From Escherichia coli (GTDB lineage Bacteria; Pseudomonadota; Gammaproteobacteria; Enterobacterales; Enterobacteriaceae): a stretch of 64,000 nt of DNA. The translations under genes and the position numbers were made by a program. The notes under the pieces are model-generated. The model ran no database searches. It was not told where the DNA came from and saw nothing but the letters and a program-made list of their open reading frames with translations. Positions 37,105 through 45,296 of the stretch are shown here, piece by piece; positions within the stretch are counted from its first letter, which is position 1, and the number at the start of each line of letters is the position of its first letter. The stretch lies in NCBI RefSeq assembly GCF_024502345.1, contig NZ_JALDNN010000001.1; one strand, 5' to 3'.

Positions 37105-37983
37105 ATGAGCGGGCATGAGGTAATGGTACAAAGAATAACCGCTATTATTGCAGAACTTTACCAGTACGGTTTTGTATCACGTAAGAAGATGATGGACGAA
37201 TTCAACATCAGTGAGCGTACTTTGTATCGTGATCTTAATCGTCTGGGCGACAGAATCGTCCCCGATGGTGATGGTATTTACAGGCTGGCTCCCGCTTACG
37301 CTAAACCTCAGGCTCTAAAAGAACAACAAAATCTCATCAATGCCCTAGGGATGGCAGAGTTATTCCCTGTAAAAAAAATCTTCTCCCAGCCTGACATGAC
37401 TTCACTGATCATCAGATCGCTGCCCGGAGATCCAGAAGCGAAACGCGTACTTGAGAATAACTATAGTGTGTTCGATAAAGCGATTCGTGAAAATAGCCTT
37501 TGTGAATTTCATTATAAAGGGAAACATCGGACCGTCGCGCCTTATAAGCTTATTAACATAAAGAGCGTCTGGTATCTCGGTGCGGTAGAGAATGAAAAGG
37601 TTAAAGGATTCCAGCTCACCAAAATTCATTGGCTGAAATTTAAATCAGAGCACTTCACACCACAACCCCATATCACACAATACTTTGCTGAAGAAGATGA
37701 TGTCTGGTTTTCTTTGGATAAGCAGATTGTACTCCTTAAAATTTCAGCCGACGTAAGCCATTTTTTTAAACGTCGAAATGTTCTGCCTGCCCAAAAGTTA
37801 ATTCGTCAGGAACCTAATGGCGACTTGATCGTGCAAACAAAAATGGCACACGAAAACCAGCTATTTCCATTATTACGTTATTGGTTACCAAATCTCACTA
37901 TTATTTCTCCGGTTAGCCTACAACAACGTTTTTATCAGAAGCTCAACCAGCAGATAATAGAAATGAAAAACCCATTGCAGTGA
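37105..37983 (+). CDS. WYL-domain transcriptional regulator (HTH-WYL, BrxR/CapW/YafY-like)
   Basis: 292 aa; N-terminal HTH (FNISERTLYRDLNRLG), central region containing KSVWYLGAVEN; AAGGAG RBS. Confidence 0.75.
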   Translation: MSGHEVMVQRITAIIAELYQYGFVSRKKMMDEFNISERTLYRDLNRLGDRIVPDGDGIYRLAPAYAKPQALKEQQNLINALGMAELFPVKKIFSQPDMTSLIIRSLPGDPEAKRVLENNYSVFDKAIRENSLCEFHYKGKHRTVAPYKLINIKSVWYLGAVENEKVKGFQLTKIHWLKFKSEHFTPQPHITQYFAEEDDVWFSLDKQIVLLKISADVSHFFKRRNVLPAQKLIRQEPNGDLIVQTKMAHENQLFPLLRYWLPNLTIISPVSLQQRFYQKLNQQIIEMKNPLQ

Positions 37984-38064
37984 AATTATTTTTGACAACA
38001 TACAGCAGGAGTAAAAAATGTTACGTGGTTCAGAAAGAAAAGAAGCATTAGCCAGTCTCAAAAG

Positions 38065-42737: not shown

Positions 42738-42773
42738 CACTCGAATAAAAATTACAGCAAGGATAAAACCACA

Positions 42774-45296
42774 ATGCTACAGATAATTGGTGCGTTAATT
42801 TTACTGGTAATCGGTTTTGTTATTATAAAAGCGTTGTTTAAGGCATCTCTCAATATTCTAGGTGTGATATTAGGATTGGGTGCATTGATTGTTGCAGGCC
42901 CACCTTTATTGGCGGGCTATATTGTAGAGCGCGTAACCTATGCGCTTCACTCACGTTGGCTGCTGGGTGTACCTCTTGCCATAGCAGGAATGGTGATTAG
43001 CTTTATGTGGGGACTTGATGGTAAACATATTGCCTACGAAGCTTATTCATTTGATTCAATGAAGTTTATTTTAACCGCTGCATTTGCCAGTGGCCTGCTT
43101 GCAGTACCTGTACAAACCAAGGCTATTCTACAAAACGGGCTTATACCAGCCGATATCAATGCCAAACTTAAAGAGTATTATTGCTGTTTTTATACATCTT
43201 ACTTTTTGATGGCCTGCTCTGCGGCTACACCGTTTATAGCCTGGCAATATAATATCTCATCTTCACTGATGTGGTGGACAGGATTGCTATACTGGATAGC
43301 AGCCTTACTGACACAGTTCTATGCGGCAAACCAAATTCAGGAACTCAAGAAGTTAACTAATGCCATCAATACAGGGTTAAATGAGCAAAAAGCGATCAAT
43401 AACCAACTTTGGCTGACGGAACTAAAAGAAGGAAGTAACCTCTCAGCAGAATTCGTAGAGACTATCTATCTTAAGTTGGTCTCACAGCATATTTTTCAGG
43501 GCGATACTCGAGAGCAGGATCTGGCTGGTGAAAACTGGCTTTTAAATGATGCCTGGTATGAAAGAAAGATGGCTGAATTTAATGAGCAGTTAAACAGTAA
43601 AATTGTACACTCATCAGATGAGCTAAGAAGCCTTTTTGGTAATAGGCTGAATTTACCCTCTGCTGCGAATGATGATCTCCTGAACCGTTATCTTGATGGT
43701 GGGAACTATTATTCTTTTTCGGATGGTCGAAAATTTGTCTCGTTTCACTATGTCGACGAGCTTTGTACCTGCACTTCATGCGGTTTGAGCGAGATTAAAA
43801 ACGCAAAACACCAGGACGGTTGTGGGAGCCAGGAATGGTATTGCTCTGATATTTGCCGGGAAACGGAAAAACTCTGCATTGAAATTCACAAGCGACCACA
43901 GGCTGAATTTATTTCCAGTGCAGCAACAAACGGTCTGATTCTCATGACGCTCCCGGAGGCCTGGAATACTAACGAAAAAATGTTTGCAGTGGGAGGACAA
44001 GGACATGGTTTTGCAGCCGAACGGGGAAATCATCTTACTGACAAAATCCAACTAAAAGATGCACATATTCTCGGTGATGATAATGCGAAAAATGGTGCAG
44101 ACAGGCTGGTTAACGGTTCAGAGATTCAGACCAAATACTGTGCAACCGCTGCACGTAGCGTCGGTGCTGGTTTTGACGGACAAAACGGTAATTATCGCTA
44201 TTATGACAGTAACGGAACCCCAATGCAGTTAGAGGTTCCGAAAGACCAGTATTCGAAAGCGCTTGAAACGATGGAGAACAAAATTCGCGATGGCAAAGTC
44301 CCCGGCGTTACCGATCCTGCAGAAGCCACAAAACTTGTACGTCAGGGACACCTGACTTATAGCCAGGCACAAAACATTACTAAGTTTGGCACGTTCGAAT
44401 CTATCACTTACGACATTGCGGAAGGATCTATCATCAGCCTCGCAGCTGGAGGTATCAGCTTCGGTCTGACAGCTTCTATTTTCTACCTCAATACCGGCGA
44501 TCGTAAGGCTGCGTTGCAAACGGCAGCAATACAGGCAGGTAAAACATTTACCCGCACACTGACAGTTTATGTGACGGTACAGCAATTACACCGTATCAGT
44601 GCCGTTCAGGGGTTACTTAAAAATATTGATTTTGCCGCTGCCAGCCCGACAGTTCGTAATGCGCTTCAACAGGGAGTCGGAGCTAACAATCTCAACTCCC
44701 TTAACAAGATGATGCGTGGCACACTGGTTACCTCTTTCGCACTGGTCGCCGTGACCACTGGTCCGGATATGATCAAAATGGTGCGAGGTCGTATTTCTGG
44801 GGCACAGTTTATAAAAAATCTGGCAGTTACTTCATCTGGTGTGGCTGGGGGTGCAATTGGTTCTATTGCTGGCGGAATGATGCTTAGTCCATTAGGTCCT
44901 TTCGGTGCTTTAGCAGGACGCGCAGCTGGTGGCTTGTTAGGCGGTATGATTGCCACAGCGATTTCCAAAAAAATAGCGGGTGCACTGGTTGAAGACGACC
45001 GAGTAAAAGTGCTGGCTCTCATCCAGGAACAGGTTACATGGCTTGCAACAAGTTTCATGCTTACAGCACACGAACTTGAAAACCTGAACGCGAATCTGGC
45101 AACAGTAATTGACCAAAAAACCCTGGAGGTTATCTTCGCCGCAAAAGAGCAAGACCGAGCAACGGCCAATATGCTGATTAAACCACTTGTAGTAAGTGTG
45201 GTTAAGCAACGACCGGTCCTGAGCTATGAACAATCGCAAATCTGCGAAATGGTCGATCAGCTTGATACATCGGTTTCATTATCTGCTGTTGCATAA
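42774..45296 (+). CDS. Gene Z: hypothetical 840-aa protein; multi-pass TM N-terminus, central Cys cluster, C-terminal glycine-zipper segment
   Basis: N-terminal hydrophobic helices, CTCTSCG...CGSQEWYCSDIC cluster, C-terminal SSGVAGGAIGSIAGGMMLSPLGPFGALAGRAAGGLLGGMIATAI; AAGGA RBS; 36 bp after gene Y. Confidence 0.7.
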   Translation: MLQIIGALILLVIGFVIIKALFKASLNILGVILGLGALIVAGPPLLAGYIVERVTYALHSRWLLGVPLAIAGMVISFMWGLDGKHIAYEAYSFDSMKFILTAAFASGLLAVPVQTKAILQNGLIPADINAKLKEYYCCFYTSYFLMACSAATPFIAWQYNISSSLMWWTGLLYWIAALLTQFYAANQIQELKKLTNAINTGLNEQKAINNQLWLTELKEGSNLSAEFVETIYLKLVSQHIFQGDTREQDLAGENWLLNDAWYERKMAEFNEQLNSKIVHSSDELRSLFGNRLNLPSAANDDLLNRYLDGGNYYSFSDGRKFVSFHYVDELCTCTSCGLSEIKNAKHQDGCGSQEWYCSDICRETEKLCIEIHKRPQAEFISSAATNGLILMTLPEAWNTNEKMFAVGGQGHGFAAERGNHLTDKIQLKDAHILGDDNAKNGADRLVNGSEIQTKYCATAARSVGAGFDGQNGNYRYYDSNGTPMQLEVPKDQYSKALETMENKIRDGKVPGVTDPAEATKLVRQGHLTYSQAQNITKFGTFESITYDIAEGSIISLAAGGISFGLTASIFYLNTGDRKAALQTAAIQAGKTFTRTLTVYVTVQQLHRISAVQGLLKNIDFAAASPTVRNALQQGVGANNLNSLNKMMRGTLVTSFALVAVTTGPDMIKMVRGRISGAQFIKNLAVTSSGVAGGAIGSIAGGMMLSPLGPFGALAGRAAGGLLGGMIATAISKKIAGALVEDDRVKVLALIQEQVTWLATSFMLTAHELENLNANLATVIDQKTLEVIFAAKEQDRATANMLIKPLVVSVVKQRPVLSYEQSQICEMVDQLDTSVSLSAVA

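Follow-up and report, generated by a model that had tools for sequence, protein, structure and literature searches.

Three consecutive genes downstream of a WYL-type regulator in a 64,000-nucleotide stretch of Escherichia coli DNA (contig NZ_JALDNN010000001.1; the whole stretch is referred to below as the window) raise the question of what kind of system they encode, and of what the two insertion sequences (ISs) residing in the first gene tell us about its role. The genes, here named X, Y and Z, had been described in an initial annotation of the window as members of no recognizable family, with defence against phages as one possible function. Profile searches assigned all three to existing families: X and Y correspond to PDC-M09A and PDC-M09B of the PADLOC database, and Z belongs to the YeeR family (Pfam domain YeeR_C).

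The reconstructed product of X (281 aa with both inserted elements removed; identical to WP_047738096.1) matched the PADLOC profile PDC-M09A (PDLC04407) over residues 1-280 of the 282 profile positions (E 2.4e-120), while Y, encoded downstream of X on the same strand, matched PDC-M09B (PDLC04409) with an E-value of 1.7e-213. PDC-M09 is one of 145 "phage defence candidates" (described there as untested) compiled by Payne et al. (bioRxiv 10.1101/2024.01.29.577857), who drew them from genes embedded within BREX, DISARM and type I restriction-modification (R-M) loci; it was defined as cassette CAS_00055, FAM_02775>>FAM_02807. The E. coli locus resembles this definition in that both matches are full-length and the genes retain the A>>B order and strand, but it differs from the two-gene cassette in having an additional upstream WYL gene and a downstream YeeR-family paralogue of component B, and in that two IS elements have destroyed the A gene of the window. 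Scans of X, Y and Z against Pfam-A, in a copy that did not include the YeeR_C model PF27347, gave no significant match, and NCBIfam and PHROGs provided nothing useful for X or Y, the only NCBIfam match of X being to a XaxA-type toxin model below its cut-off. Literature searches retrieved no paper naming PDC-M09 in its text, and none for the RefSeq accessions of the proteins. The profile searches proposed in the initial annotation led to the uncharacterized families PDC-M09 and YeeR.

To define the conserved unit, we scanned one genome per species with a Y profile, which yielded 134 relatives, of which 80 loci were kept. In 78 of these loci X immediately precedes Y, usually overlapping it or within 30 bp, and the loci cover Proteobacteria, Cyanobacteria, Firmicutes, Bacteroidota, Gemmatimonadota, Acidobacteriota and Chloroflexota. 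Natural fusions of the two were also identified, P0293 (X spanning 92-364, E 3e-95, and Y spanning 402-874) and P0333. The Enterobacterales loci are the only ones in which X-Y is joined by Z and the 292-aa WYL gene. The view of X-Y-Z as a three-gene unit therefore has to be revised: judged by the almost invariable pairing, the fusions and the restriction of Z and the WYL gene to Enterobacterales, the conserved unit is X-Y, to which the Enterobacterales operon adds a paralogous, apparently self-contained YeeR module; Z occurs alone elsewhere. An exhaustive search with the Y profile returned 368 clusters (50% identity) at E<=1e-30 and 1600 at E<=1e-3. With hundreds of homologues each, under purifying conservation, X, Y and Z are real genes.

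Y was also detected on 65 plasmids, including 46 from Klebsiella, and as 1 unannotated fragment among 50,697 phage records. The 46 large Klebsiella plasmids carry X-Y without the WYL gene or Z; in the one whose neighbourhood was inspected (L103, IncFIB, 8141-10437), the pair lies a few kb from psiA and adjoins the tellurite-resistance ter operon. In an Aerococcaceae locus (L022, 12162-15333) a normal X-Y pair is followed by genes for a WYL regulator, a membrane protein (222 aa) and a Y-like protein (517 aa), the last of which matches PDC-M09B (E 9e-10) and represents a third architecture of the Y/YeeR_C domain.

Across Proteobacteria, 959 homologues of Z with lengths of about 830 aa could be detected. 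A precomputed match to PF27347 is present in nearly all of them and in the cluster that shares 99% identity with Z, and the homologues bear the UniRef name "Inner membrane protein YeeR". In E. coli K-12, the yeeR gene of the CP4-44 island is truncated, and yeeR is described as being co-transcribed with flu and irmA (PMC6480617); Z shares with the K-12 protein the YeeR_C domain and residence in a CP4-type island. Comparison of profiles revealed that the C-terminal half of Z is homologous to Y (hhalign probability 92%), a relationship detectable with profiles only, since plain BLASTP of Y against Z found no similarity. Y and Z have in common a conserved domain that contains invariant polar residues. 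This homology ties a long-unexplained gene of E. coli K-12 to a defence candidate. In a small set of YeeR-family proteins (P0024, P0049, P0054, P0108, P0113), the X profile also weakly matched the C-terminal glycine zipper and helices (approximately 685-810; E 2e-5 to 7e-4). There are hints, possibly due to compositional bias, that Z joins X-like and Y-like parts in one chain. Without X-Y, Z was found (i) in Methylomonas, with HicAB, a TIR gene and IS66 in the vicinity, (ii) in Pseudomonas, adjoining a RES-Xre toxin-antitoxin pair, and (iii) in Aliarcobacter, in an integrase island where a type I R-M system follows it immediately. A 283-aa open reading frame (ORF) upstream of Z in Aliarcobacter was considered as a candidate X and rejected, as it is not an X homologue.

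The locus is situated inside an integrative island at the tRNA-Thr (thrW) site of E. coli; the proA-proB-phoE flank of the window shows 99% identity to many E. coli genomes. The boundaries of genes and inserted elements were set by comparison with E. coli PSJ-29 (locus L001, 99.8-100% identical), in which the island is uninterrupted and encodes the full 281-aa X. The features are as follows (coordinates of the window).

37105-37983, plus strand: WYL regulator, 292 aa, with wHTH-WYL-WCX layout (wHTH, winged helix-turn-helix), identical to WP_060571123.1.
38018-38064, plus strand: gene X (PDC-M09A), fragment 1, codons 1-15 plus 2 nt, colinear with L001 21019-21065.
38065-39121, plus strand: IS903 (IS5 family, 1057 bp), in codon 16 of X.
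39122-39487, plus strand: gene X, fragment 2, 100% identical to L001 21057-21422, its first 9 bp being the duplicated target.
39488-40850, minus strand: IS110-family element, 1363 bp, boundaries from the L001 comparison.
40851-41292, plus strand: gene X, fragment 3, from codon 136 to the stop, colinear with L001 21423-21864.
41292-42737, plus strand: gene Y (PDC-M09B), 481 aa, an alpha/beta N-domain followed by a helical, partly hydrophobic C-terminal half.
42774-45296, plus strand: gene Z, 840 aa, a full-length YeeR-family protein with a multi-pass N-terminus, a Cys cluster and a YeeR_C half.
46053-49333, with the remainder from 50391, plus strand: SIR2-family neighbour gene, interrupted at 49334-50390 by a second IS903.

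The gene anatomy given in the initial annotation agreed with the window and the PSJ-29 copy to within a base or two. The regulator is separated from X by 34 bp and Y from Z by 36 bp, and the reported TAATG overlap between the X stop and the Y start does exist, although it lies at 41290-41294 and not, by a one-base slip, at 41289-41294. The interval from the regulator through Z contained no terminator-like site, a strong one being located after Z; the number of sites found in this promoter and terminator scan did not exceed chance, and it was used only for the terminator-free interior of the operon. The island context was likewise borne out, with the SIR2 gene and an integrase gene both present and both broken by ISs. 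The SIR2 gene is colinear with the 3876-bp SIR2 gene of L001 and shows a 9-bp duplication at the IS903 junctions. Approximately 6 of 5426 complete E. coli genomes have the locus, none of the others with these X insertions, and uninterrupted X-Y-Z was found in PSJ-29 and ET826; in the latter the three genes are identical and intact, and an IS3 element stands in place of the WYL gene.

Both insertions previously reported in X were confirmed. IS903 (terminal repeats GGCTTTGTTGAATAAATCG; transposase ORF at 38097-39065) lies in codon 16 and is bordered by a perfect 9-bp target duplication, TCTCAAAAG, at 38056-38064 and 39122-39130, the left copy being the last 9 bp of X fragment 1. The IS110-family element (transposase ORF at 39745-40809, minus strand) is inserted between codons T135 and L136 with no target duplication, leaving in fragment 3 the C-terminal helices and the second half of the conserved Gly/Ala-rich hydrophobic core. 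Three plasmid copies of this element (L100, L101, L102) are 99.9% identical, share their ends with it and are each inserted at ATTGTAC^GTTAAG. Since this target is conserved and X offers a near-match, ATTGCTAC^GTTAAG, the insertion appears to be sequence-directed, consistent with the sequence-guided target choice of this IS family.

Could two hits in one gene reflect counter-selection of a costly or toxic system, as had been proposed? Comparison with PSJ-29 revealed five IS insertions and two deletions in the island: besides the elements in X, there are IS5 at 34432-35626, IS3 within the integrase gene at 57267-58525, and, in the SIR2 gene, the second IS903, again flanked by a 9-bp duplication, while the Ag43 autotransporter gene has lost 2.2 kb internally and arsC 240 bp (at about 30655 and about 45650). 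This island-wide IS load, the target preference of the IS110-family element and the presence of intact X-Y-Z without the WYL gene in ET826 led us to reject the argument; moreover, once a first hit had broken X, a second was neutral. The two insertions reflect the general decay of an IS-rich island and give no sign of selection against a toxic system. As the IS903 and IS110-family insertions destroy X, the X of the window is dead and at least the X-Y module is non-functional in this strain; the window's copy is thus of little interest beyond illustrating island decay. It is worth adding that the two inverted IS903 copies flank approximately 10 kb containing the interrupted X, Y, Z and the interrupted SIR2 gene. 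Elsewhere in the window, a high-GC segment (58-67%; 9000-25000) corresponds to the transmissible locus of heat resistance (clpK, an ftsH-like protease, kefB-GI, an S1C protease) and is 99.8% identical to copies in approximately 118 E. coli genomes.

The membrane character attributed to X, Y and Z was supported by uncharged Gly/Ala stretches and hydrophobic segments. X contains a Gly/Ala-rich stretch of 94 residues (97-190) without a single charged residue and with basic sequence on both flanks, and its AlphaFold2 (AF2) model (mean predicted local distance difference test, pLDDT, 67; predicted template modelling score, pTM, 0.66) comprises four long helices (4-56, 62-94, 190-246, 256-275). An alignment of 67 homologues from many phyla revealed that conservation within the protein peaks in the Gly/Ala/Thr-rich centre of this core (approximately 113-176), which is nearly invariant, whereas the helices vary freely; judged from this pattern, the core does not behave like a passive membrane anchor. 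Y was modelled with higher confidence (pLDDT 81 overall, >90 over the alpha/beta N-domain, residues ~30-240). Its N-domain carries invariant polar residues (TKHGEIAE, R104, D109, QSK), and three uncharged hydrophobic segments follow in the helices behind it. In Z, the N-terminal part contains about five hydrophobic segments; a glycine-rich stretch occupies 682-715, and cysteines 333, 336, 357, 361 and 368 are invariant. No solved structural relative was found for X or Y. A relationship of X to the pore-forming toxins ClyA, XaxA and MakA was considered and rejected: the score with the NCBIfam model alph_xenorhab_A was 21.6 bits, far below its cut-off of 125, MakA chains of the PDB gave only E 0.17, the profile search of the PDB was empty, and X did not show a ClyA-type fold. 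One Y-containing protein, P0390 (808 aa), which may be a gene-call artefact, combines a lipoprotein signal peptide and three PASTA-like repeats with a complete Y.

The regulator was expected to be of the BrxR/CapW type, and its domain layout fits this: Pfam recognized HTH_11/HTH_DeoR at residues 10-47 (1e-4), WYL at 123-174 (9e-6) and WCX at 209-279 (8e-5), and the protein matched PADLOC WYL models (E 6e-20). Like BrxR and CapW, it has the three-domain arrangement and lies directly upstream of its cargo on the same strand; it differs in that its domain E-values are modest (1e-4 to 1e-5) and in that in ET826 the cargo remains intact without it. Two reports (PMC9122601, PMC11662680) describe WYL regulators that gate defence systems and sense single-stranded DNA. 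Like CapW and BrxR, the WYL protein most likely keeps its operon silent until damage or infection provides a cue; the 34-bp gap and the lack of a terminator-like site before the end of Z provide positional support.

Recurrent partners of X-Y were identified by clustering the neighbours of the 80 loci, followed by profile searches. WYL regulators recurred in at least four lineages and dynamin-like GTPases in three. (i) WYL proteins of different subfamilies occur near X-Y in four Enterobacterales loci, Crenothrix, six Burkholderiales loci, Lachnospira and Aerococcaceae; the gene is directly upstream of X in Lachnospira and precedes the third kind of Y-like protein in Aerococcaceae. (ii) Dynamin-like GTPases of one LeoBC-like subfamily, there with an N-terminal helix-turn-helix, are encoded directly upstream of X in six alphaproteobacterial loci. 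The dairy Lactococcus lactis plasmid pSD96_06 (L104, 3603-11259) carries a dynamin gene, X (E 2e-94), Y (E 1e-105), a second dynamin gene on the opposite strand and a DUF262 gene, both dynamins being homologous to the alphaproteobacterial one; in Wohlfahrtiimonas a LeoA-like protein and an HNH protein adjoin X-Y. (iii) In five Burkholderiales loci that also have a WYL gene in the vicinity, the gene immediately after Y encodes a JukA homologue (E 5e-54). In seven loci (L060, L063, L072, L073, L075, L082, L086) from Gemmatimonadota, Cyanobacteria, Acidobacteriota and Gammaproteobacteria, an ORF of approximately 130-156 aa, without NCBIfam or PADLOC match, follows Y on the same strand after 0-7 bp; it may be a third component in its subclade.

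Two of these partners belong to systems with tested anti-phage activity. Protection against jumbo phages is reported for a two-gene Leo-like dynamin system, whose GTPase motifs are needed for it. The Leo dynamins (LeoA/LeoBC; Millman et al. 2022 preprint) resemble X-Y in being membrane-associated, besides being its recurrent neighbours, and the glycine-rich hydrophobic hairpin with flanking helices at the LeoBC C-terminus is matched by X (residues 51-247 against profile positions 399-536, E 3e-5, PADLOC). Pfam and NCBIfam, however, recognized no GTPase domain in X, Y or Z, and homology of X to these dynamins was rejected, as hhalign with the neighbouring dynamin aligned only 31 hydrophobic columns (probability 59%); the Leo-type dynamin is a partner or analogue of X-Y, not a family member. 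JukA is a sensor recruited to the ejection site of jumbo phages, with variable effectors and WYL genes as its commonest neighbours. The Burkholderiales X-Y-JukA loci fit this pattern, although none of the four proteins of the window matches JukA or JukB, and the Juk paper lists neither X nor Y among the partners of JukA.

The anticipated co-occurrence of X-Y with WYL regulators and defence islands was seen in several lineages, though not at all loci. Informative neighbourhoods were the following.

E. coli ET826 (L106, 1-9078): type I Zorya (zorD) directly upstream of X-Y-Z.
E. coli PSJ-29 and the window: SIR2 neighbour.
Vibrio conjugative element: Gabija-like genes and Abi_2.
Clostridium: type III R-M, PLD helicase and NERD.
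Bacteroides: nSTAND/HSP70/UvrD cluster.
Leptolyngbya plasmid: restriction endonuclease and AAA ATPase.
Aeromonas and Aliivibrio: integrase islands.

Taken together, the PDC-M09 identity, the partner genes and the defence neighbourhoods lead us to retain defence as the leading hypothesis: we put at roughly 50% the probability that X-Y is a membrane-level anti-phage module, acting during infection as one inner-membrane complex. In this model, X would be a four-helix cytoplasmic bundle carrying the uncharged Gly/Ala core, and Y a conserved cytoplasmic alpha/beta domain with glycine-rich membrane helices behind it; an inner-membrane complex with cytoplasmic domains is inferred because no signal peptide is visible and basic sequence borders the X core on both sides. 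The WYL protein would hold the operon off until a cue, upon which, during infection, the X-Y complex would collapse or remodel the membrane (abortive infection) or act at the entry site, and Z would represent this machinery in a self-contained form. Any specific mechanism, be it abortive depolarization, entry blocking or membrane repair, ranks well below the defence role as such. A broader proposal, which we put forward only tentatively, is that X-Y and the Y-like half of YeeR are structurally unprecedented inner-membrane immune effectors, a modular output for WYL regulators, JukA or Leo-type dynamins that acts at the site of phage breach; a bias towards jumbo phages is conceivable, because both tested partner systems act on them.

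Several observations weigh against the defence reading. No experiment on the defence role of PDC-M09 or YeeR is on record; X-Y has ordinary genes and no defence or mobile neighbours in a Bacillus sp. and in Phormidium, and its contexts in Pseudomonas and on the Klebsiella plasmid are weak and uninformative. The intact X-Y-Z of ET826, lacking a WYL gene, argues against strong toxicity that needs a gate, the P0390 fusion would place the N-domain of Y outside the cell, in conflict with the assumed cytoplasmic topology, and residues 97-190 of X, lying between the helices, were modelled by AF2 at low confidence.

The non-defence contexts of Bacillus and Phormidium and the ET826 operon would also suit a membrane-integrity or repair module, in which X-Y, together with dynamins where present, stabilizes or reseals an inner membrane damaged by phage, antibiotics or stress and delays lysis non-abortively, in the manner of Bacillus subtilis DynA. 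DynA protects by preserving membrane integrity (PMC8844932), and one dynamin subfamily flanks X-Y in both Alphaproteobacteria and Lactococcus plasmids, with a LeoA-like protein in Wohlfahrtiimonas. Nevertheless, a dynamin neighbour is present in only about 7 of 80 chromosomal loci, the three proteins themselves lack a GTPase domain, and the patchy distribution linked to mobile elements would be unusual for a general stress system, so that we consider this explanation unlikely. The absence of defence neighbours in Bacillus, Phormidium and the Klebsiella plasmid, along with the co-transcription of yeeR with flu (Ag43) and irmA in CP4-44-like islands (PMC6480617), could instead mean that these are accessory membrane proteins without a role in conflict, e.g. 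envelope or adhesion-island cargo like flu-yeeR-irmA, for which defence genes are mere co-riders on islands. The recurrence of X-Y with WYL proteins, JukA and Leo-like dynamins in unrelated phyla, and the choice of the cassette by Payne et al. for its embedding in defence loci, make this quite improbable.

Two further explanations concern the glycine-rich segments. These might disturb the genome-ejection channel in the inner membrane in a tape-measure-like fashion, blocking entry as in superinfection exclusion: X 92-281 matched tape-measure PHROGs (phrog_1533, E 7e-6), the glycine zipper of Z matched a tape-measure chain in the PDB (9ki1_g, E 0.004), and the partner JukA acts at the ejection site. 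However, these matches fall in low-complexity Gly/Ala sequence, may be compositional and are to be taken as a lead only, and Y is nearly absent from phages, whereas classical exclusion genes are phage-borne; we thus regard this reading as very doubtful. The Gly/Ala-rich hydrophobic sequence of X also recalls glycine-rich microcins, but in composition only. A secreted bacteriocin or polymorphic toxin, the alternative offered in the initial annotation, found no support and is highly improbable: X and Y have no visible signal or leader peptide at their N-termini, the operon lacks export, immunity and secretion genes, the hydrophobic core of X is internal, between two helical domains, and Pfam, NCBIfam and PADLOC gave no pointers to toxins apart from the sub-threshold XaxA match.

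The families themselves, PDC-M09 (X, Y) and YeeR (Z), are thus already catalogued, though uncharacterized, and the four-gene Enterobacterales arrangement (WYL-X-Y-Z) is a new variant. As far as could be found, the Y-YeeR homology, the X-Y fusions and the partnerships with WYL proteins, dynamins and JukA have not been described previously. What is added to the catalogue entry is that X-Y is obligate and sometimes fused, that Y is related to YeeR, and that WYL proteins, Leo-type dynamins and JukA recur as partners of a pair spread over at least seven phyla, without a solved structural relative and with an almost invariant hydrophobic centre. Intact, clonable copies are available in E. coli PSJ-29 and ET826, and these findings open a concrete way of testing what PDC-M09 and YeeR do. 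If X-Y and the Y-like half of YeeR are indeed immune effectors, the long-unexplained yeeR genes of E. coli cryptic islands would be immune genes too.

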